NCBI GenBank assembly: GCA_964291215.2
Contig: OZ219791.1
Span: 544,001-608,000, forward strand
Length of the DNA: 64,000 nucleotides
From: Alphaproteobacteria bacterium
GTDB lineage: Bacteria; Pseudomonadota; Alphaproteobacteria; MPNO01; UBA830
Direction: 5' to 3'
Notes under the pieces: model-generated
Databases searched by the model: none
What the model was told of the DNA's origin: nothing
What the model saw: the letters and a program-made list of their open reading frames with translations, nothing else
In this document: positions 18,882 to 31,136 of the stretch, piece by piece
Position numbering within the stretch: position 1 is the first letter of the stretch
How the letters are laid out: the number at the start of each line of letters is the position of its first letter
Program-made: the position numbers and the translations under genes

Positions 18882-19379
18882 TCAGGCCGCGCCCGCGGAC
18901 AGATCCTTGTCGTCGGCCTCCGCCGGTTCCGCAACCGCCGCAGGGGCTTCGTCGACCGCAGCAGCCGCCTCGGGATTGGGAAGCGCGTCCGCCTGCCGGT
19001 CCGGCTCCATGGATCCCACACGATCCGCCCTTGCCGCAATCCGCGCGCTCTTGCCGCGGCGTCCGCGAAGATAGTAGAGCTTGGCGCGTCGCACCGCGCC
19101 GCGCCGCGCCACCTCGATCTTCTCGACGCGCGGGCTGTACAGGGGGAAGACGCGTTCGACCCCCTCGCCATAGGAGATTTTGCGCACCGTGAACGAGGAA
19201 TTCAGCCCCTTGTTGGAACGTGCGATCACAACGCCCTCATAGACCTGTATCCGTTCGCGCGTGCCCTCGACGACGCGAAAATGCACCCGCACGGTGTCAC
19301 CCGGCGCGAATTCGGGTATCGGACGCTCGGCGACCAGGCGGTCCATCTCCGCCTTTTCGATCTGTTCAATGAGATTCAT
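18882..19379 (-). CDS. rplS: 50S ribosomal protein L19
   Basis: [31 protein letters not shown]; acidic Ala-rich tail. Confidence 0.97.
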
Positions 19380-20109
19380 GGCACTTTTCCTCTTCCCCGC
19401 GCGTCTTCTCCAGATAGCGGCTCCACAGATCTGGACGCCTCTCGCGCGTGATCGTTTCCGCCTGCGCCAGGCGCCAGGCCTCGATTCGTTCATGATGCCC
19501 GGACAGCAGGATGTCCGGAACCTTGCGGCCGCACCAGTCGGCTGGCCGCGTATAGTGGGGATATTCGAGAAGTCCCGAGGAGAAGCTCTCGTCGCGGAGC
19601 GACTCGGCCTCGCCGACAACCCCGGGAAGCAGCCGGACGCAGGCGTCGATCAGCGCGACGGCGGCAGGTTCACCGCCTGACAGCACGAAATCCCCAAGGC
19701 TTATCTCCTCGATCCCGCGAGCATCCAGCACCCGCTGGTCCAGGCCTTCGTAACGGCCGCAGATCAGCGTCACCCCCGTTCCGCACGCCAGCCGGGCGAT
19801 CCTGTCCTGGCACAGCTGCGCCCCCCGCGGGGTCAGGTAGATGGCCGGCGCACCATCGAGGGCATGAGCGGCAAGCGCCGCATCCACGACATCGGCACGC
19901 ATGACCATCCCCGGACCGCCGCCGAACGGAGAATCGTCGACAGTGCCGTGGCGGTCGGCCGCATGATCACGTATATCGGCCGTTTCCAGCCGCCATGCCC
20001 CATCCCGGAGCGCCCTGCCGGCGAGAGACAGCGCCAGCGGTCCCGGAAACATCCCGGGAAAGAGGGTCAACACCCTCGCCGTCCATGTCTGCCCGCCACA
20101 CGTGTGCAT
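19366..20109 (-). CDS. trmD: tRNA (guanine37-N1)-methyltransferase
   Basis: [42 protein letters not shown]; start approximate. Confidence 0.96.
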
Positions 20110-20110
20110 G

Positions 20111-20701
20111 TCAGCTACCTGTCCTGTCCGGCCCGCCACCGGTCGGCATCGCCGGCGGATCGATCACGATTCGCCGGTCCGCAATGTCCACCTCCGGCAC
20201 GGCCTCGGCGGTGAACGGCACCAGAATGCTCTCCGCACCGGGGCCCGGATCGATTTCCAGAACCTCGATCTCTCCCGCCGGGACGATCGCCGCAACCGTT
20301 CCCGCATGGCTGCCGTCTGCCAGGAACACGGAAAGCCCGAGAAGATCGGCGTGATAGAACTCGTCCTCTTCGGTGGGCGGCAGCGCCTCCCTCGAAACGT
20401 AGAGCCGTTCTCCCCTGAGCGCTTCGGCAGCCGCGCGGTCGCGCACCCCCGAGAGTTCTGCTATCGTCGCCCCCTTTCGGACCGCGCACACGCGGATGTT
20501 GAAGGACCGGCTGCCGCTCTCGTCGGCGACGGGTCCGTACGCTCCGATGTCCGCGGCGTCTGCGGTAAAGCTGCGGATCCTGACCGCGCCGCGCACACCG
20601 TGCGCCCCCGCGACCGCGCCGACACAGACGCGGCCCGCGCTCGCCGCGCCGCGAACCTGAATCGCGGACGCGATGCCGTGCTGTCCTTTTCCGCCGCCCA
20701 T
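20111..20701 (-). CDS. rimM: Ribosome maturation factor RimM
   Basis: [28 protein letters not shown]; position between rpsP and trmD; start uncertain. Confidence 0.93.
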
Positions 20702-20761
20702 CGTTCAGACGCCCTGCCAATCTTCTCTGCCGCCGTCACCGAACTCTCCGCGGCCATGCCT

Positions 20762-21124
20762 TCAGGAATCGGACGGCGCCTGTGCGGCCGCCGCTTCCTC
20801 AGCCTCCTGCAGCCGTTTCTGGGCCTTGGCCTTGGGCGCGCTCTTCTTCGGCGTTTCCCGCCATTCGGGCGTCGGTATCATCTCGGCATGGCCCAGGAAC
20901 CGGGCGACGCGGTCGGACGGTTTCGCGCCTTGGGAAAGCCAGTGGCGCACCCGGTCCTCCTTGATCACGACCCGCTCCGGATGGTCGCGCGGCAGCATGG
21001 GATTGTAGGTGCCGACGCGTTCGATGAACCGTCCGTCCCGCGGCATGCGGGAGTCGGCGATGACGATCCTGTAGTAGGGGCGCTTTTTCGCTCCGCCCCG
21101 GGAAAGTCTCATTTTCAGTGACAT
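20762..21124 (-). CDS. rpsP: 30S ribosomal protein S16
   Basis: [31 protein letters not shown]. Confidence 0.98.
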
Positions 21125-21197
21125 GCGGTTTCCATTCCTCCATCACGCCCGCCACGCCCACCGGGTCTCCGGCACCGGCGGCGGACAGCCTGTTCCT

Positions 21198-22595
21198 TCA
21201 GCGGGGCCTGACGCGCCTTCCCGGCGGCAGCATCGCGGGAACACGCTGCGCCGCCCCGCCCATGACCTGCTCTCCCAAGGAGTCGAAGCCCATTCCCATC
21301 TTCTTCGCTTTCTTCATCATCCGCGTGAGCGCCTGGTACTGCTTCAGCACCTTGTTGACGTCGTGCAGGCCGACGCCGGCGCCCGCCGCTATGCGGCGCT
21401 TGCGCGACGCCTTGATGATCTCGGGCTTGCGGCGTTCACGCAGCGTCATCGAGCTGATGATCGCCTCCTGGCGGATCAGTGTCTTCTCGTTGATATTGGC
21501 GGCGTCCATATGCTGGCGCGCCTTGCGTGCGCCCGGAAGCAGGCCCATGACGCCGCCGAGCCCTCCCATCTTGCGGAGCTGGCGGAGCTGGGCCGCCATG
21601 TCTTCAAGATCAAACCTGCCGGATTCGATCTTGCGCGCGAGGTTCCTGGCCTCCTCCTCCTTGACCAGCCCCTGCGCCTTCTCGACAAGGCTAACGACAT
21701 CGCCCATGCCGAGAATGCGCGACGCGATGCGGTCGGGATGAAATGCCTCTAGCGCGTCAAGCGTCTCGCCGGTGCCGAGAAGGCGTATCGGCGTACCGGT
21801 GGCCGCCTTCATCGACAGCGCGGCGCCGCCACGGGCATCGCCATCCACGCGCGTGAGAACGATCCCGGTCAATGCCAGCCGTTCGTTGAAGGTCCTGGCG
21901 ATATTCACCGCTTCCTGGCCGGTCATGGCATCGGCCACGAGCAGGACTTCGGCCGGATCCGTCGCCTTCCTGATGTCGGCCGCCTCGTCCATCAACGCAT
22001 CGTCGATCTGGGTGCGGCCGGCGGTGTCGAGGATGACCACGTCGTAGCCTTCCCGGCGCGCCGCATCCACGGCCCGCTCGGCGATCTTCCGGGGCGACTG
22101 TCCGAGCGCGATCGGCAGCGTTGCGACCCCGGCCTGCTCGCCGAGCACGGCAAGCTGCTGCTGGGCTGCCGGACGGTTCACGTCGAGCGACGCGAGAAGC
22201 GTCTTGCGCCCCTGATCCTCCTGTAGCCGCTTGCCGATCTTGGCTGCCGTCGTGGTCTTTCCGGAACCCTGCAGCCCGACCATCATGATCGCGGCAGGCG
22301 GCGCAGCGCGGATTTCGAGATCCTGGCTCTCTGGGCCGAGCATCTCGACGAGACCGTCATTGACGATCTTGACCACCTGCTGACCCGGTGTCACCGAGCG
22401 CATGACTTCTTCGCCGATCGCCCGTTCCGTGATGCGGTCGGTGAAGTCCTTGACCACCGGCAGCGCCACGTCAGCCTCAAGCAGGGCGACGCGGATTTCG
22501 CGCATGGCGCCCCTGACGTCATCTTCGGAAAGGGCGCCGCGTCTGGAGAGCCGATCGAAGATGTCGGCAAATCGGTCTGTCAAGCCGGCAAACAT
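21198..22595 (-). CDS. ffh: Signal recognition particle protein Ffh
   Basis: ALLEADV, GLQGSGKTT, DTAGR, DGDARGGAALS, ISSMT..ER M-domain; ATG at 22595. Confidence 0.98.
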   Translation of the reverse strand: MFAGLTDRFADIFDRLSRRGALSEDDVRGAMREIRVALLEADVALPVVKDFTDRITERAIGEEVMRSVTPGQQVVKIVNDGLVEMLGPESQDLEIRAAPPAAIMMVGLQGSGKTTTAAKIGKRLQEDQGRKTLLASLDVNRPAAQQQLAVLGEQAGVATLPIALGQSPRKIAERAVDAARREGYDVVILDTAGRTQIDDALMDEAADIRKATDPAEVLLVADAMTGQEAVNIARTFNERLALTGIVLTRVDGDARGGAALSMKAATGTPIRLLGTGETLDALEAFHPDRIASRILGMGDVVSLVEKAQGLVKEEEARNLARKIESGRFDLEDMAAQLRQLRKMGGLGGVMGLLPGARKARQHMDAANINEKTLIRQEAIISSMTLRERRKPEIIKASRKRRIAAGAGVGLHDVNKVLKQYQALTRMMKKAKKMGMGFDSLGEQVMGGAAQRVPAMLPPGRRVRPR

Positions 22596-22647
22596 GAAGC
22601 TTCGGTACTTTCTTAGAAATCGTCCGGAATCCGGTCCAAAACCGCAC

Positions 22648-22718
22648 TGCGCCAGCGAGCGCACCCGCGCCGACTGACTGACGCCGTATGGCGTTCAGAT
22701 ATCCAGATTATCCTGAGC
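22648..22718 (-). ncRNA. Putative alphaproteobacterial ffh leader RNA motif
   Basis: Lies between promoter and ffh; contains CAGTCGGCGCGGGTGCGCTCGC, resembling the ffh leader motif as I recall it, plus hairpin ACGCC-ATAC-GGCGT. Confidence 0.6.
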
Positions 22719-22753: not shown

Positions 22754-24104
22754 CCGCATCGGGCCACGGCGATCCCACGCCAGGTTTGTTGGAAGGGTCG
22801 GTTTTGCTTGTTCAGGATGATTCGCATTTTCGCTGACTTTTTGTGAAGCGGCGTAGTATCCGTTGTCGTGGGGGCAGCGGATTTTTTTGAGACGACTCCG
22901 GAGGGTTTTGAGCTCCGGGATGTGGTTGTGCGCCTTGCGCGGCCTGATGTCGCTGGAACCGTGTTGTTGACCGTATCTTGGTTTCAAGCAGTTTGCGGTC
23001 GAGGTCTGCGTGTTCACCTGGCGCGGGCGGTGGATTGGTGCTGCGGGCTGGCAGACGGGCGCCCTCAGCTGCGCACCCGTTGGCTGGCGCCGCGAGGAAC
23101 AGTTCAGGCGGTTGCCGGGAACAACACGAGGTTTGTTGTTCCTGGTGGTCGTTTCCGAGCCTTGCCTCGTTTGCGTTGTCGCGGATGGTGCGGCGGCGAC
23201 TGGGAGGCTGCGTACGGCCATCCGTTGCTTGTTGCGGAGTCGTTTGTCTCGCCGACGAAGTTCAGCGGCACCATGTACAAGGCGGCGAGCTGGGAGTGCG
23301 TTGGCAGGAGCCATGCGCGCGCCAGCGGGCGCCATAGCGACCGGCACGGGGAGGCGAAGGCTCTTTACGTGTTTCCGCTGCGTCGTGACGCGGGATCGTT
23401 CGCCGCTTCCTGTGGCGTGGGAGTTGCGGGCGCCGCTGGTCGGCGCAGGAGTTGCGCTCGATTTATCAGCGGCGCTTTCCGGCGTGCGCAGGGGCACCGC
23501 ATCGCCTCGGTGCTGTGCGTGATTTTGCTGGCTTGCGAACCGGCACGGTGCGGTTGCGGCGGCGCACTACGACGCAGAAGGAGCTGGAGCAGCATGGAAG
23601 AACAGGGACAAGCCGGTCTCCACCGTGCACCGGGTGCTGCAGAACACCGACCCGGGATGGATCGAGGATGCGGCGCGCAGCCGCAGGTCGGCAACGCGGT
23701 CGACGGCAAGCGCGGCCGCACCGGCGAGAATCATTACGAGACGGTCTCGCTGGCCGGTTTCGATCCTCAACTATCACGACGGGGAGATCGCTGCCGTCCA
23801 CGCCGCGTCGGCCGTCTGCTCACCCTCGACGCGCTCCACACCACCCGCGAGGCTGATCATCGAGACCCATCGCGCGAACTGATGGTCAAGGGCAATGCAC
23901 CTTCGAGAGAGCATCAACTGGAAGACCGCCAGCGCTACAACGAAAAGCCCGCGCATGGCCGCCAGCGCACCATCTTCACCCCGCTGGCGAAGATGATCAA
24001 CTAGCAGATCTTCCGCGTCACCCGGCGCGTCGAATTCAAGAAATCCAGAAAACGGACAACCGAATACGCCATGACCTTATATGACTAGGTTTTGTCCCCT
24101 TGAT

Positions 24105-25545
24105 GTATCTACTCACCCCTAGTTGGGTTCTGATTGGTCGTAGTGCTCGTTGATGATGTCTGCGGCTTTTCCGTCGAGGGCGATCTGGGTGGCGACGAGT
24201 GGGTTGTAGCCGAGTGCGGCCATGGAGGTAAGGTAGCTTGAGCCCCGGCACCATGCTTTTGCGTGGAGCGGAAGCATCCGGACACCTTGAGCTTTGCCAT
24301 CCTGATCTTCTGTTCTCCGGCATTGTTGGTGAAGCTGACGTCGGGGTCGTCTGTGAAGCGCAGGTTTTCGTGTTTCATGAGACGTTCGTGCAGGTTGTGC
24401 GCGTTTGCTATGCGTTTTCCTTTCGGCGGGATGTCGGGCAGTTCCTTGGCGCCCTGATGGTGCGCTTGCGCCCGGCCTCGTTCAGGGTCCTGGATGCGCT
24501 CTTGTTGATCTTGTGGCAGACCTCGCGGAGCAGGCTCTTCATCAGTCGCGCGGTAGCCTCGACGACGAAGGTCAGTTCGCGCAGCAGGTGGCTGCCGCTG
24601 GTGGCTACACTGCCATGTACGAGGCCCAGGACGCCCTTGTAGCACGGGCCGATCTCTTGCTTGCGGTGCGGGAACTTGCACGTCCCGACGACATGGAGCC
24701 ACTTGCTGTTGATCCGAAATCGTCGACATCGGGCGTTGCAGGAGGTGCGCCACGGCGGCCTCCTCCCATGACGCATCGTGAAAGCATAGCCGAGGCCTCG
24801 GAAAGCTTGATGCCGGAGATCGCCTGCACGAGCGCGACGGCGCAGGGACAGCATCCGGGCGACCAGCAGGTTGATGACGAGGGCTTGGATGCCGTACTGC
24901 ACGGGATGTTGTCGGGGAACCGGGCCTTGCACTTCGGGCATTCCTTGATCTCGGCGCGGCGCTCGACGACCTCGAACACGATGTCGTGCGGCGCTCCCGA
25001 TCGACGGGGCCGTCGGCGCCGCAGGCGTCGCAGGCCGCGACCGTCTCCTCGACGATGGTCTTGCGCAGGTTGTCGCCCATCTGCCGGTTCGGCTTCGGGC
25101 CGTTGCTCCCGGCACACTCTTGTCCGTCTGTGACGGCGGCAGACCGGAGTTCCGGCTCGTGCGTGGTCTTCTCCAGAAGGACGACGATGAGGATGACGAA
25201 GACGCGGATCACGGCCTCTTCCGCCACCTTGCCGGCCGCACGCAGCGCCTTGGCCGCTTCGAACTCCTCGCGCGCCGCGTTGACCGTCGCCATCACCCGG
25301 CCTTGCGCTTCATCAGCGCGCCGCCTCCGAGATGCGTTTTCACATACAGATCATGCGGGGGCTGGAGCCCCGGAAGCAGCTGGCACAGCCCGCTCGTCGC
25401 CTTCGATCCAAAGTAGCCCACTGGCGGTCCCCATCGTCCTCGATTACCACCACTAAACGAATCGGCCTGCAGTGTCAAATCTTCACGAAAACCCGTTCGT
25501 TGCTCTACCCCGACATCAAGCCGGAACCAGGGGGTGAGCAGTTAC
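24105..25545 (-). mobile_element. IS66-family element (single-ORF, ISBst12-like), decayed
   Basis: TIR GTATCTACTCACCCC / GTAACTGCTCACCCC (13/15); 8-bp DR CCCTTGAT at 24097-24104 and 25546-25553; TnpC fragments HLLRELTFV, DVSFTNNAGEQKIRMAK, KVSGCFRS. Confidence 0.9.
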
Positions 25546-25553
25546 CCCTTGAT

Positions 25554-25806
25554 GATGAAATCATCCACAGCAGTTGGGGGCGGGAAAATGTGGATCTGTG
25601 GGAGAGCTATGGTTGCAGAGAGATTCCGCTCCCCTGAGCGAACACGCACAGGGGAGCGGGGTGCGGGGATCAAACGATCTCCGCGGAGGTTGCCGTTTCG
25701 ACCTTGACAGGGCCGTGTCCGAGTGTGGTCGGCCAACCTCCCTTGACGTCCCTCGCATGGATGCTTGGGTTTGAACCCGTATCATCGTAAGGCGAGGAGC
25801 AAGGGA
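25554..25806 (+). ncRNA. Putative IS110 bridge RNA with target- and donor-binding loops
   Basis: Target loop closed by GGAGGTTG/CAACCTCC (25685-25741); donor loop closed by CCTCGC/GCGAGG (25751-25797) and containing CATGGATGCTT, identical to the element's circle junction; extra 5' hairpins at 25626-25659 and 25663-25684. Confidence 0.75.
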
Positions 25807-25808
25807 CG

Positions 25809-26514
25809 ATGGTCAAGATAGTAGCAGGGGTCAGCCAGTCTGGACATCTGGCGCATTGTTTTGCGAACGACGCCACGGGCAGGTGGCTTCGCGGCCTCGG
25901 GGTGAGCCGGGTGGTGGGCGACAGGCCGCTATCACCGCAAGGTTCACCAGTGTCTTCATGACCGGGGCTTCAAGGTTATTCTCGTCAACCCGTTGCGGGC
26001 TTCGCCGAGGCGATGGGCCAACCGCGTCGACGCCAAGATCGGCTGGGCGATCTTGAGCCTGTGGCTCCGCCTTCCTCAAGAGCCTGGAGGATCTCCTGGT
26101 GCCGCGCTTGTCGACGCGTGGCAGATGAGGAGGATGGCGAGACCGTCACAAGGGCCTCAGCGGCCGATCTCGATGACCGCATTGCCGGTGCGGCGATCAA
26201 AGCGGTGATCGCCGGTGATCCCGAGCAGAGCTACGCCATCCTGACCTCGATCCGGTGACCGCCGCGGCCCTTCTGGATGCCCGAACTCGGCAGCGTCGGC
26301 AGCCTTGATCGGGGTGGCGCCAACGACCACGGTGCTCGGGACATCCGTGGCGGGCGCCGAAGGCCACGTGATCTCCTGGCCGCAACCGGCACGCTTCAAC
26401 GCGGACCTGGTGCGCCTCAAGACTGCCGGCAAGCAAGGTCGCGATTGTCGCCGTGATGCGCAAGCTCTGGCGAACACCTTGCTGCGACAGCAGCGTTGCC
26501 TGAAGCACCGGTGA
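25809..26514 (+). pseudogene. IS110-family DEDD recombinase, heavily deleted
   Basis: MVKIVAGVS, GRYHRKVHQCLHDRGFKVILVNPLR, FAEAMG, RVDAK, WMPELG, LIGVAP, AGKQ, LANTLLR fragments. Confidence 0.85.
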
Positions 26515-27411
26515 GTGAGCGAAGGAGACACGGCCCTGCCGAGAGGCAGCGCCGCGCGCCGCAAGGCCCCCACCTCCACCACCGAAAGCCCCATCGTTCC
26601 CGTGCGCAACGCTGGTGCGATGCGGTGGCTCGGTGCGGTGCAGGAGCACTATCGGGACTGTCTCGACAGTCTCCCTCTACGACACGACTTGGGGAGAATG
26701 TCTGCAGATCATCGTCGAGGTCGACATCAAGGAGATCGAACCGCCTTGGGACACCTGGAACCCGGACGGTCACGTGCCCGGGGACGGCAAGGTAGCCGCG
26801 TTCACGTGACCAATGGACGGCAACCCGCCGCCGGGACCACAAGCTTCATGTCGCCTCGCTCGCAGAGCAAACCCCACACCGCTTGTGGACAACCACAGAA
26901 AACATCACCACAGACACCCGCAAAAACCTTGCCAAGAAACATGGATGCTCGGTCGAACGCGCCTCGCCGCAACAGCTGCTCGCATGGAATCGCGGACACT
27001 GGGTAGTCGAGAGCCACCATCATGTCCGCGATGCCACCTTCCGCGAAGACGACTCCATGCTCCGAACGCGCCCGCAAACAACGCGATCACCCTCGCAATC
27101 ATCATCCGCAACAAACGCAAGCTGCCCAAACCCTTCAACAGCTTCGTCGACACCACTATGTCGACAAGCGCAAGCAGGTCCTGCACGCAATCACAAGACC
27201 AGGCTGACCGCGCCTCTCTCCCCGACAGAAACCGCAAGCTTTCGAGCCCGGCAACCAAGGCCTCTCGCTCGCCCCGGATACGCCGACCAATCGCGCCCCG
27301 CGCCGCAACAGCGCGTCAGAAAATCTCAAAATCGCAGCCTCGAACGCGTCGACCCGCGCCACGATCAGGACTCCGATCACATCACATCAACAAGCATGGG
27401 ATCACCTTGGC

Positions 27412-27605
27412 CAGGACTTTCCCACGCTGTGGTTGGTGTTTTGAATGACCGCTGAACGGGGCACAAATTTCCGCATTCTTGCCAGGTTTTCCGGCTGCGG
27501 CGACCCGTAGACGGCCCCGCGGCCAGAAAACCCGACAGGCTTGGGCCTGGGCAGCCTCTTTCCATCAGCAGTCGGCAAGATCGAATGCAGCGTGGGATAG
27601 TCCTG
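27412..27605. mobile_element. ISAs1-type MITE A (194 bp)
   Basis: TIR CAGGACTTTCCCACGCTG / CAGGACTATCCCACGCTG (17/18); followed by GCATCGGGCC. Confidence 0.8.
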
Positions 27606-27615
27606 GCATCGGGCC

Positions 27616-27803
27616 CACGACGATCCCATGCTAATTCAGAGACAGGAAATCCGAATGCGTTGGGGCTCATCACAGATCGCCTCCTTGATCGCAATTTTTG
27701 TGCCGAGAAGGCCCCATCGAGCCTTGACGGCGCGATTGCATCGCGACGCAAACTGAGAAAATCTCGCCAGTCGTCGCCGGATTAGCAGCGTGGGATCACC
27801 GTG
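27616..27803. mobile_element. ISAs1-type MITE B (188 bp)
   Basis: TIR CACGACGATCCCATGCTAAT / CACGGTGATCCCACGCTGCTAAT; flanked on both sides by GCATCGGGCC (27606-27615, 27804-27813). Confidence 0.8.
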
Positions 27804-27989
27804 GCATCGGGCCGGCTGCCGCGCAATCAACTGAAGCGGACAATTCGCATGTCACATACACCGGACACTGCAGAACGTTATCGATCGCGGCCATCAAGCG
27901 CCGCGCGGCCCGTCGCGCGACGGAGGAATGCCCGGACATGAAGCCTGGCTGTCCATAGTTGCCGCGGAGCCCTTTCCGGCTGCGCCCTA

Positions 27990-29208
27990 GTAGTCCACCG
28001 GCATTGTATTGATGGTTTTTTGTGGGTAGTATTTCCGTGTCGGCGTTCGTTGGAATCTGGACAGTACCGATATCCACACGGGCAGATGCCGAACAGGCAG
28101 GCAGCCGCAGCCCCATGCGCAGGTCCGGACAACGGGCATGCCCGCAGGTCTTCGGCGCAATGACAGGAGCGGCGCATATGGCCGACTCTCGGGGCAGGAA
28201 GCTCTACCGCGTGACCCTTTCAACGCAGGAGCGCCAGGATCTGAAGGCGATCGTCGACGGCACCGGGGCCGCCTGGCGCCGGGCACAAATCCTGATGCTG
28301 AGGGGCGCTTGTCGATGCCGACATTGCGCTGGGCATCGGCACGGCGACGGTCGAGCGTTTGCGCAAGCGCTGCGTCCTGGAGGGGCTGGACGCCGCCCGC
28401 AAGGAGCAGGTGAACCGCCGGCCAAAACGGGGGCGATGGAGGCGAAGCTGATCGCCCTGTTCGTCCCCGCCCGAGGGCTGTGGACGCTGAAGCTGCTTGC
28501 CGGCCGTCTGGTGGAGATGGAGATCGTCGAGCGCATTTCGGAAGAGACGGTCAGGAAGACGCTAAAAAAAAGAGATCAAGCCGTGGCTGAAGCAGTACTG
28601 GTGCATTCCACCGCACCGGAGCGCACAGTTCGTGGCGGCGATGGAGGATGTGCTTGACATTTATCAGCGGGACTTTGCCGGGGACGAGGTGCTGAGACCA
28701 GCCGGCAGCTGACGAAGGAACCCCCCCGGTCAGCCGGAGGTGGTCGACTATGAATATGAGCGCAACGGCACGGCCAACCTCTTCATGGCCTTTGCGCCCA
28801 ACGAGAACTGGCGCACGGTGAAAGTCACCGACCGCCGCGGGACTGGGCGCACTTCATCCGGGAGCTTGCCGACGACCATTTCCCCGACAGGAAGATCGTG
28901 CTGGACAATCTGAACACGCACAGTCGCTGTATGAAGCCTTCGAGCCCGAGGAGGCGGGTACGAAAGCGGTTCGAGTTTCGCTATACGCCGAAGCACGGAA
29001 GCTGGCTCAACATGGCCGAGATCGGTGCGCTGTCGCGGCAATGCCTTCGGCGACGCATTCCCGACCGCGACACCATGCTGCGGGAGACCGTGGCGTGGGT
29101 CGAGCGCCGCAATGCGGCCGATGTCACTGTCGACTGGCGTTTCACGACGAAGGATGCCCGGACGAAACTGAAGTCACTATATCCTTCAATCCAATAATGT
29201 CAGACTAC
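27990..29208 (+). mobile_element. IS630-family element, decayed transposase at 28178-29197
   Basis: Ends TAGTAGTC.. / ..GACTACTA at CTAG (TA duplication); WTLKLLA, ISEETVRKTLKK with A-run slippery site, DYEYERNGTANLF, LDNLNTH, YTPKHGSWLNMAEI, WRFTTKDARTKLKSLYP. Confidence 0.88.
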
Positions 29209-29273
29209 TAGCGATGCCGGACCCTGCCGGACCAGCCTACCGTTCCCGCACTTGCTCTGAGCGGTCTCTGACC

Positions 29274-29289
29274 GTTACATTTTGTCACA
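29274..29289. promoter_or_regulatory. Possible OmpR-family binding direct repeat upstream of the exporter operon
   Basis: GTTACA-TTTT-GTCACA, 10-bp period. Confidence 0.3.
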
Positions 29290-29489
29290 GAACAACGGCC
29301 CCCGGACAAATGCATGCAACATGGTTGTGCGAGGATCGCACGCAACCAGCTTGGCGGTGCACACGCCAACGGGCAGGGGCGATGAGGGCGTCAGACCCTG
29401 CCCCACCAACGCGGGGGCGAACCCGCAGGTGCATGGCCCGGTTCGGGAGCCCGGCATGAAACCGGTGGAATTCGGACGGAAGGCTTCGC

Positions 29490-31136
29490 ATGTCGAAACG
29501 TAGACTCCTTGTCCTGCTCGGCGCTGGCGTTCTGATCGCGCTTGGCAGCGCCGTCTTTGCCCTCGACAAGGAACCGGTCACCGGCAAGACCTTCCTAACC
29601 GCAAAGGTCGAACGCGGCGATGTCCTGAAATCCGTGTCGGCCTCGGGCGAACTGGGGGCCGTGATCACGGTCCAGGTGGGCTCGGAGATCTCGGGTCAGA
29701 TCTCGGAACTGCAGGCGGACTTCAACTCCAGGGTCAGGGCCGATCAGGTCATCGCGCGCATCGACCCAGAAAGCTTCGAGGCCCGGGTGAACCAGTCAAG
29801 GGCGGAACTCGCGGTTGCCGACGCCACCGTCGGCATCCGGAGCGCCGCGCTGGTCCAGGCGCGGGCAAATCTGCAGAACGCACGGGCGCAGCTTGCCGTC
29901 GGGGAAGCGAACCTCAAACGCACCAAGGTAACGGCCGCGGACCTGAAACTCGACTACGACCGCAAACGGCAGCTGCGCGGGCGTGGTGCGGTTGCCGCCA
30001 GCGCGGTCGACAAGACGCGTGCGGCATGGGAGGCAGCGGTCCAGCAGGTCTCGGCCGCCGAGGCGCAGCGGCGCGCCCATCGATCGACCATTTCCGCCCG
30101 CACGGCCCAGGTCAGGATGGCCGAGGCAGAAATTGTCCACGCCCGCGCCCAAGTGCAGCAGAAGAAGGCCTCCCTCAAGGTCGCGGAGGTCAATCTGGAC
30201 AACACGTACATCCGCTCTCCGGTCGATGGTGTCGTCATCGGGCGCAATGTCGATGTGGGCCAGACGGTCGCCGCCAGCCTGCAGGCGCCAACGCTGTTCA
30301 CCATCGCCCAGGACCTGCGGAAAATGCAGGTCGAAACCAGCATCGACGAAGCGGATATCGGGCAGGTGAGGGTCGGCCAGGTGGCGACGTTCACGGTAGA
30401 CTCCTTTCCCGGACGGCAGTTTCAGGGCAGTGTCACGCAAATCCGTCTGCAGCCGCGAAACGTCCAGAACGTCGTGACCTACACCGTGGTTCTGACCGCC
30501 GACAATGGCGACCTCCGCCTACTCCCGGGGATGACCGCAAATGTCGAAATCAAAGTGTCCAGCCGGTCCGGCGTTCTGCGCGTCCCGAATGCCGCGTTGC
30601 GCTTCAACCCTCCCGGCGCATCCCCACCGGCAGCGGCAGCCAGGAGCCCGGGCGGGCGGCCGAGTGCGGCGGCAAGGGCGGAACGGCGAGCGCAGGCTCA
30701 GGCACGCCGCAGGCGCCTTGCAGAGACCCTCGGCCTCGACGAGCAACAACAGGACCGGCTGCAGGAGATCGAGCACGCCACCTTTCAGCGCATCGCCTCG
30801 CTCAGGCGAAACGGCATCCGTGGGGAAGAGTTCCGCAATTCGGCCCGCCGGCTTCGCGAACAGGCGAGCAAGGACGTCATGACCATTCTCAATCCCGAGC
30901 AGCGGGTGAAGTACGGAACGCTCCTCGCCAAGCGGCGCACCAACCCGGTCCGGCGCGCGCGGGCCTGGGTCCTTGAAAACGGCGAGCCGAAGGCGGTCCG
31001 CGTGTTTATCGGCGTCGGCGACGGAAAGTTCACCGAAATGGTTCGTGGCGGCCTGACCGAAGGGCAGGAGGTACTGGTCGGTGTCGGCAGGCCTGTGGAG
31101 CAACGGCCACACAGGTTCTGGCGTTTCGGGCTGTAG
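29490..31136 (+). CDS. MacA-like periplasmic adaptor (efflux MFP subunit)
   Basis: TVQVGSEISG, long coiled coil, IRSPVDGVVI, GQTVAASLQAPTLF, LLPGMTA. Confidence 0.9.
   Translation: MSKRRLLVLLGAGVLIALGSAVFALDKEPVTGKTFLTAKVERGDVLKSVSASGELGAVITVQVGSEISGQISELQADFNSRVRADQVIARIDPESFEARVNQSRAELAVADATVGIRSAALVQARANLQNARAQLAVGEANLKRTKVTAADLKLDYDRKRQLRGRGAVAASAVDKTRAAWEAAVQQVSAAEAQRRAHRSTISARTAQVRMAEAEIVHARAQVQQKKASLKVAEVNLDNTYIRSPVDGVVIGRNVDVGQTVAASLQAPTLFTIAQDLRKMQVETSIDEADIGQVRVGQVATFTVDSFPGRQFQGSVTQIRLQPRNVQNVVTYTVVLTADNGDLRLLPGMTANVEIKVSSRSGVLRVPNAALRFNPPGASPPAAAARSPGGRPSAAARAERRAQAQARRRRLAETLGLDEQQQDRLQEIEHATFQRIASLRRNGIRGEEFRNSARRLREQASKDVMTILNPEQRVKYGTLLAKRRTNPVRRARAWVLENGEPKAVRVFIGVGDGKFTEMVRGGLTEGQEVLVGVGRPVEQRPHRFWRFGL

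Follow-up and report, generated by a model that had tools for sequence, protein, structure and literature searches.

Does a decayed insertion sequence (IS) still record which DNA its guide RNA chose, and do guides read from one copy name the site in which that copy lies? We pursue this question for an IS110-family element nested in a transposase gene within the window, i.e., the whole 64,000-nucleotide stretch of DNA analysed here, which derives from a 6.15-megabase alphaproteobacterial genome (64% G+C) whose nearest Ffh relatives, among the matches listed, are uncultured and 71-75% identical. Our answer, to which we give a probability of roughly 0.85, is that the element is a dead member of the IS621 group with a predicted bridge RNA in its left end, that its family likely spread by RNA-guided insertion, and that point changes in the guides likely redirected it to new sites. 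The family has about 65 copies in this genome (70 right ends, 56 left tips and 62 bridge-RNA regions), and the junctions and RNA region of the window copy are laid out as follows (nt, nucleotides).

24069..24075, + strand: left target arm CCATGAC, on the E-Y-A-M-T^S codons of the host gene (from empty sites and translation)
24076..24077, + strand: left copy of the CT core (from left tips and empty sites)
24078..24104, + strand: left-end tip, with the right donor arm TATATGA and a predicted -10 box TATGAC (24080-24085)
25623..25662, + strand: long hairpin H1, 5' in the predicted RNA (from folding; 96% of cells paired, one compensatory pair)
25663..25684, + strand: hairpin H2 (from folding), the likely positional equivalent of the IS621 5' stem-loop
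25685..25741, + strand: target-binding loop, with 6 nt missing from its outer stem and 5-6 nt from its inner hairpin in the window copy
25696..25704, + strand: left target guide TTTCGAC-CT (from covariation with left flanks)
25717..25725, + strand: right target guide GTCCGAG, which reads CT-CGGAC, and handshake TG (from covariation with right flanks)
25757..25765, + strand: left donor guide ATGGATG-CT, with a 7-nt deletion directly 5' of it
25782..25793, + strand: right donor guide TCATCGTAAG and handshake GC, with a bulged pairing predicted
26929..26934, + strand: predicted -35 box TTGCCA of the circle-junction promoter
26941..26949, + strand: left donor arm ATGGATG and right copy of the CT core
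26950..27409, + strand: right target arm CGGTC, then the 3' portion of the ISAs1-family host gene (below cut-off for NF033564 at E=3e-5)

The ends and CT core proposed in the first-pass annotation, all of whose quoted sequence strings are present where it placed them, recur throughout the family. Right ends terminate in ATGGATG-CT and left ends begin with CT-TATATGA; among the 70 right ends listed, the flank is present in 69, one being truncated by an IS66, and the left tips directly follow CT in 42 of 56 cases, with a common 8-nt junction deletion in 9/56 and other sequence in 5/56. Host sites without an insertion have a single CT, and in contigs from public runs in which a sister copy is absent, the joint falls at identical boundaries; the boundaries are thus held in common among the copies, as had been predicted. 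The IS110 elements have no long terminal inverted repeats, only the short core at both junctions that is single in the empty site, and an IS1111-type layout is not found, with the guides in the left end and no sub-terminal repeat among the longest 25 of 624 inverted pairs. The boxes of the predicted circle junction TTGCCA-N17-TATGAC, also proposed previously, are conserved, with TTGCCA in 65/70 right ends, TATGAC in 36/40 intact left ends and the 17-nt spacing kept. A promoter scan inside an intact relative (L127, below), which left out the circle junction itself, gave none. By this sequence evidence the IS110 element genuinely belongs to the IS621 group and has a predicted bridge RNA in its left end.

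The intact relative lies on a metagenome contig, L127, where a gene for a 315-amino-acid recombinase is followed by one for a 96-amino-acid protein, and it served as our reference in place of a consensus recombinase. It is about 85% identical; the window copy shares about 86% nucleotide identity with it over 1421 bases but is broken. The L127 recombinase passes both PF01548 and PF02371 (a DEDD RuvC-like domain and a Tnp domain with a serine), its residues D9, E51, D93, D96 and S232 align with the catalytic residues of IS621 as given in PMC11208158, and it matches IS621 (E=2.4e-29) and ISCro4 (9T56; E=5.2e-26) in the PDB. Its donor is that of the family; its guides, TTTGACC-CT and GGTTGAG, are different and match a different insertion site, GAGACC-CT-CAATC. 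This site falls within a gene for an rve-type transposase, and in the empty form the reading frame runs on across it; judged by these sequences, L127 supplies a guide-site pair of independent origin. At L127:2613-2739, 250 bases downstream in the same transposase gene but at another CT site, there is a further left end of this IS110. The corresponding gene in the window is a pseudogene:

25809..26512, + strand: recombinase pseudogene, with 20 frameshifting deletions and the codons for D9, E51, D93 and S232 (L127 numbering) affected

That the recombinase is a fossil, as first proposed, holds for every full-length copy in the genome, all 50 being broken, each by at least 8 frameshifting deletions. 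Two intact IS110 genes in the genome (429 and 431 amino acids), considered as helper recombinases, belong to another subfamily and were rejected. A DNA search of 60 related genomes returned only one 31-base match. Of 400 genomes from the same class, 3 contain relatives at 44-46%, whereas 25 genomes from the same family did not yield the element; a distant-mode search of a plasmid collection gave no match, and viral contigs contained no relative.

The non-coding structured region precedes the recombinase gene, in contrast to IS1111, where it follows the gene, and folds better than shuffled sequences (z=-3.6 for the window, -7.4 for L127). In undeleted copies the predicted fold has a pair of 5' hairpins, then a target loop and then a donor loop, and the 5' hairpins (25562-25684 region), which may belong to the working RNA, are kept in L127, relative to which the window RNA region carries five left-end deletions of 8, 9, 6, 5 and 7 nt; no Rfam family reaches its gathering score in the window. 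The IS621-type layout, the CT core and the positions of all four guides put forward in the first-pass annotation are borne out by the genome copies and by L127, while its donor loop needs revision. The 9-nt left donor guide is expected 0.001 times by chance in 285 nt, but the claimed 11/11 donor match is inflated because the 7-nt deletion supplied an extra C at 25756, undeleted copies reading GA-ATGGATGCT at this position. The right donor guide, previously given as GTAAG, was correctly placed but is longer: 9 donor bases can be paired by 25782-25791, with a single bulge and a single wobble. What was drawn as the donor loop is an alternative pairing, the deletion having removed the TCCT/AGGA closing stem of undeleted copies. 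Where the donor starts with TGT, the guide is ACAAG in 3/3 copies, and also in L127; ACAAG accompanies the common donor in 2 further copies.

The target guides covary with the sites. Among the 61 copies in which both guides could be parsed there are 17 target-guide pairs. In flank tests covering 58 copies on the right and 40 on the left (the remainder have no parsed guide, flank or CT), right-flank positions +1 to +5 give 260/290 matches against a shuffle mean of 203, and left-flank positions -5 to -1 give 164/200 against 118, with 0 of 20,000 shuffles reaching either value. Counted per site class, there are 90/104 matches against 69 in shuffles (0/100,000; 13 of 15 classes have a left flank), and within a single clade the covariation is weaker but present (p ~0.005 on the right, n=33; p ~0.013 on the left, n=19). 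The target guides are also the variable part of the RNA, with minor-allele fractions of 0.16 and 0.27 against 0.046 in the RNA remainder and 0.04 in the donor guide. Individual pairs are readily read: TTCCGTC/CGGGA guides stand at CCGTC-CT-CGGGA in 14/14 copies, TTTCGAC/CGGAC guides at TCGAC-CT-CGGAC, a CATGA guide beside a CATGA flank, and both copies with a CGCTC guide lie at a CGCTC site, a guide seen nowhere else. The sequence pattern also fits the handshake rule described for IS621 in PMC11208158, with C at target position -1 in 40/40 copies and C or T after the right target guide in 60/61. The first-pass annotation had staked its reading on sites that covary with 25696-25704 and 25718-25723, and covariation of flanks with 25696-25704 and 25717-25723 is found across the copies.

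Together these results suggest the following model. The element would be excised as a circle, in which TTGCCA joined to TATGAC would drive the RNA, by analogy with IS621. The donor loop, which matches ATGGATG-CT-TATATGA in sequence, would pair with it, and the target loop, whose guides covary with the flanks, would read about 5 bases, CT and about 5 bases. The 17 guide pairs track the flanks, and most surviving insertions lie in other insertion sequences. Recombination or gene conversion between copies may have moved guides between sites, giving the window copy, a mosaic, the guides of another host (host B). The left end was invaded by an IS66, and the genes were broken up by deletions of 5-7 nt, many of which likely postdate the divergence of the copies.

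Several observations weigh against this model. The copies are related, and permutation p-values accordingly overstate the significance. Information in the target is confined to positions -5 to +5, the guides matching only 15% of flanks at -7 and -6, and three site classes score 5/8. In the stems 94% of cells are paired, and the 3 compensatory pairs among 10 close sequences, a number reached in 80/500 shuffles, are not significant. At the window's own site class, 10/18 copies carry the non-matching CGGAC guide and 7 the matching one. No end-to-start (circle) joint occurs among the joints listed from contigs of three runs, contigs being unable to show absence. The -10 box of the circle-junction promoter is without its last T, a form common in Alphaproteobacteria. 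Of three hosts tested, two favour the model, the guide-matching allele being present in 18/19 filled against 7/22 empty copies of one and in 13/13 against 5/13 of another; in host D no allele bias is seen (4/4 filled against 20/32 empty, p=0.28), and filled alleles could also have spread via conversion of empty hosts, carrying adjacent bases.

The sites themselves are mostly other transposons, and the window site is an example.

22765..24077, + strand: 5' part of the host element, a decayed DruA-domain/ISAs1-family transposase gene (44 site copies; empty copies align with a DruA + ISAs1 protein passing NF033564)

The earlier proposal of an insertion into a transposase gene is thus correct, the host being a DruA/ISAs1-family gene. 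Across the family, 13/17 flank classes are multi-copy and 62/70 right flanks are repeated, with host types comprising DruA-ISAs1 fusions, IS1634-, ISNCY- and IS630-like elements and DruA-domain elements, most of them decayed and below curated cut-offs; host A was assigned through sequence shared with an IS1634 match, and hosts E and F are other DruA-domain elements. In two ISAs1 families, those of the window site and of site D, the insertion is at one and the same codon motif, E-Y-x-(M/I)-T^S. Several host elements fuse DruA (Druantia, PF14236) to an ISAs1 transposase (L111:789-2798; window 22765-27409), and one copy (G000:C1:2111547-2111783, L120) lies within another IS110-family gene fragment, near its catalytic glutamate motif codons. 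Two insertions initially taken to break CoA-transferase and ATPase genes were rejected, those genes being some hundred bases away.

The bias to transposase genes might reflect survivorship only, insertions having been purged from needed genes, with no special adaptation against transposons, and towards this view we lean by a narrow edge. Repeats make up ~23% of the genome, with ~27% of positions repeated in another count, in unique DNA many 4+4 matches to the guides carry no insertion, and survivorship explains part of the host bias because the unguided IS66 is also often nested, 51/97 insertions lying between repeated flanks. The count of 62/70 for IS110 is higher, although this one-flank measure is not strictly comparable with that for IS66, and the preponderance of multi-copy flank classes points the same way. 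Survivorship also sits uneasily with two guide variants reaching the same codon motif in two ISAs1 families and with an intact relative, L127, that is also within a transposase gene.

In the window copy, the guides and the site probably do not belong together. The first-pass annotation had found that the guides match their own insertion site and explained the mismatches by a partly mismatched insertion; the guide positions stand, but the window guides match 7/10 informative positions at their own site against 10/10 at the host-B site TCGAC-CT-CGGAC, and sister guides TTTTGAC/CGGTC fit the window site better. Over its first ~830 nt the window copy mostly has host-B-site copies as nearest neighbours, at its 3' end mostly copies from the ISAs1 site, and one host-B copy has the same IS66 junction and differs at 2 positions in the RNA region. 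The IS66 itself is nested in the left end, as previously described, with terminal repeats and a duplication:

24105..25545, - strand: nested and decayed element of the IS66 family, bounded by terminal repeats (below cut-off for NF033517 at E=6e-7; 8-bp duplication 24097-24104 / 25546-25553)

Exact end motifs of this IS66 occur 178 and 208 times in the genome, and in a contig of run X3 an IS66 right end is joined to its own left end with 6 letters between, as in a circle or tandem. By sequence comparison the window copy is a mosaic, and recombination or conversion is the simplest account of its guides, because they fit host B, the IS66 junction is common to a host-B copy and the nearest neighbour switches along the length. 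A mismatched insertion is therefore not needed. That the copy nonetheless inserted here with its present guides, or as a circle inserted by a sister bridge RNA in trans, we consider unlikely, though it has some appeal: the CGGAC guide is frequent at this site class, one donor is common to all copies, IS621 RNA acts in trans according to PMC11208160, and a single matching arm can suffice for insertion according to 10.64898/2026.08.31.748434. This account would require three mismatches among ten informative positions, and IS621 tolerates double mismatches poorly; the window site matches neither donor arm, a donor half-match having been considered and rejected, and the account leaves unaddressed the change of nearest neighbour and the common IS66 junction.

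The deletions that killed the family follow a pattern of their own. Comparison with L127 gives 51 deletions and 2 insertions for the window copy. Genome-wide, and in the window over 22765-29300, repeat copies differ in this way: of 1858 distinct indels across the genome, 1183 measure 5-7 nt, and lengths of 4 or 8 nt are uncommon. Deletions are as many as substitutions between the closest copy pairs, and the more copies a repeat has, the denser the deletions between them (0.79, 1.78, 3.50, 6.28 and 7.63 per kilobase). Placed on a tree built from substitutions, 54 shared deletions take 287 changes (5.3 each; 486 when shuffled) against 3.0 each for 62 single-nucleotide polymorphisms, and several are as scattered as shuffles; because of this scatter, many deletions likely arose or spread after the clades split. 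An initial impression of no microhomology was dropped, at least 2 bases being present at 589/1118 deletions with clean flanks against ~258 expected. A strict ATC start does not hold (26/211 unambiguous events against 7 expected), leaving a weak bias, with R-Y-C at 83 against 35. No excess of flank hairpins was found at the deletions, a search of 5 genomes from the genus gave no Ku, Piwi was likewise not found, and MutS is intact. Compared with bacterial pseudogene spectra in PMC6054270, the deletion bias, frequent microhomology and lack of Ku are the same, whereas those pseudogenes show power-law sizes and a bias to multiples of three instead of a 5-7-nt peak; our own single-copy pseudogene comparison is confined to 1/97 IS66 insertions that passed the filters, with relatives 72-77% identical. 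Our leading idea for the cause is that deletions arise rarely and may then be spread by gene conversion with a bias to deletion, the loops being beyond the length that MutS handles. Two observations count against a pure copy-number trigger: in the same-genus genome G002 eight IS66 copies are intact and identical, and working genes are found among the low-copy repeats. At L105:1290 and 1322, loose ends in runs X2 and X3 have undeleted forms where almost all genome copies are deleted, and hence these samples contain less damaged copies.

A bolder synthesis would make the IS110 family a transposon parasite, self-retargeted within one chromosome by single-base guide steps along conserved transposase codons, while the cell erodes high-copy DNA 5-7 bases at a time through a homology-driven process, as a bacterial counterpart of repeat-induced mutation. 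We offer it as a speculation that is rather unlikely to hold in full.

Shared descent could produce covariation without any retargeting in this genome, if a few founders differing in guides and sites arrived and composites of host and IS110 were then copied. Consistent with this, there are three clades with clade-typical guides, the absence of the element from the 25 same-family genomes searched implies arrival from outside, perhaps more than once, and conversion has scrambled the record. We nevertheless judge it improbable. The covariation is kept inside one clade among guides with single-base differences, and the rare CGCTC guide is confined to its own site. The TTCCGTC/CGGGA pair is found at several unrelated sites, and filled hosts do not form one clade but are scattered over the host trees (10, 9 and 4 changes against 13.8, 8.9 and 3.9 when shuffled). 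Least credible by far is that the shredded look is an artefact of assembly or polishing: the deletions are concentrated in repeats, where assemblers fail, and the three runs are from one study, one of them perhaps the source sample, but four gap-free contigs from the three runs span 19 of the window copy's deletions, the guide variants are present in the same runs, and older IS66 copies in the same-genus genomes G002 and G004 have 5-7- and 9-nt gaps, so the public-run contigs place the 5-7-nt deletions in the DNA.

Retargeting through guide changes thus remains our preferred reading, and the other features of the window copy can be set beside it.

25561..25569, + strand: DnaA-box-like 9-mer (one-mismatch form in 47/50 sequences; perfect TTATCCACA in the intact relative)
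26530..26753, + strand: remnant of the 96-amino-acid passenger gene, open reading frame 2 (ORF2; no Pfam or NCBIfam family)
26884..26892, - strand: second DnaA-box-like 9-mer, in the right end (48/50 sequences)

We take the two 9-mers to resemble DnaA boxes. Such 9-mers occur in L127 at element positions 35, 62 and -66, and, being at both ends, would flank the junction promoter in a circle; our literature search found no report of such motifs for IS110. The ORF2 product is all-helical, with an intact form at L127:1822-2112, and related frames lie in metagenome loci directly downstream of IS110, IS21, IS66 and IS3 transposases. Among 66 frames scanned of 92 listed, the neighbours are IS110 in 18, IS21 in 16, IS66 in 5, IS3 in 2, others in 7 and none in 18 (tblastn with the L127 recombinase alone gave 4/79), and the idea of a dedicated IS110 partner was rejected, an IS110 neighbour being found in 18/66 scanned frames only. 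ORF2 was not found in the 25 same-family genomes, and its fold has no match in the PDB or in a viral library, the Atlas matches being unnamed clusters. By its sequence contexts ORF2 is an uncharacterised passenger common to several IS families. To the right of the host element, a 20-nt inverted repeat (27410-27429 / 27588-27607) and a 29-nt direct repeat (27587-27615 / 27785-27813) are probably the ends of further small elements, and an apparent IS630-like remnant lies at ~28200-29200. Intact genes without visible deletions bound the nest: ffh-rpsP-rimM-trmD-like genes on one side (19366-22664) and an efflux adaptor gene on the other (29490-31136; RND_mfp, below the MacA cut-off).

The family is likely a record of natural retargeting, a natural experiment in which ~60 readable bridge RNAs with 17 target-guide pairs stand beside the sites they chose in one chromosome, and natural retargeting, mismatch tolerance and handshake rules could be tested with the intact 315-amino-acid relative. 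It also carries a warning, in that guides decoded from one decayed copy can belong to another site. The mechanism is already published, and the window element, dead here, is a new IS621-group example; its subfamily may already be listed among the orthologues tabulated in PMC11208160. A literature search, with subscription papers mostly outside it, returned no report of within-genome guide radiation or of a 5-7-nt deletion spectrum; these two are what the present case adds, the deletions being the stranger feature.

With IS621 of E. coli (PMC11208160 and PMC11208158; PDB 8WT6-9) the element shares the DEDD + serine recombinase (315 amino acids in L127), the predicted left-end RNA, the CT core, the target loop before the donor loop, the predicted -35 box in the right end and -10 box in the left, the handshake positions and the predicted bulged right donor guide, the IS621 left donor guide being 9 nt and the right one discontiguous in PMC11208160. 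The IS621 RNA has 177 nt and one 5' hairpin, in contrast to a left end of ~315 nt here with two hairpins before the target loop, and the IS621 target is 7+2+2, against informative positions of ~5+2+5 here. Unlike IS621, the present family has a long right end with a passenger gene, DnaA-box-like motifs at both ends and many guide variants per genome. ISCro4 (PDB 9T56), compared by protein alone, has a homologous recombinase. ISEc21/ISMch6, as described in PMC11187229, likewise has an upstream non-coding region and targets conserved codons of other transposase genes (IS3 family), and natural redirection by few guide changes is reported there for one relative. ISEc21, in the same text, uses one host family and makes no duplication, whereas here the CT core is repeated and the hosts include ISAs1, IS1634, ISNCY, IS630 and another IS110; and unlike that case, the redirection indicated by our data would have taken place among the copies of one chromosome.

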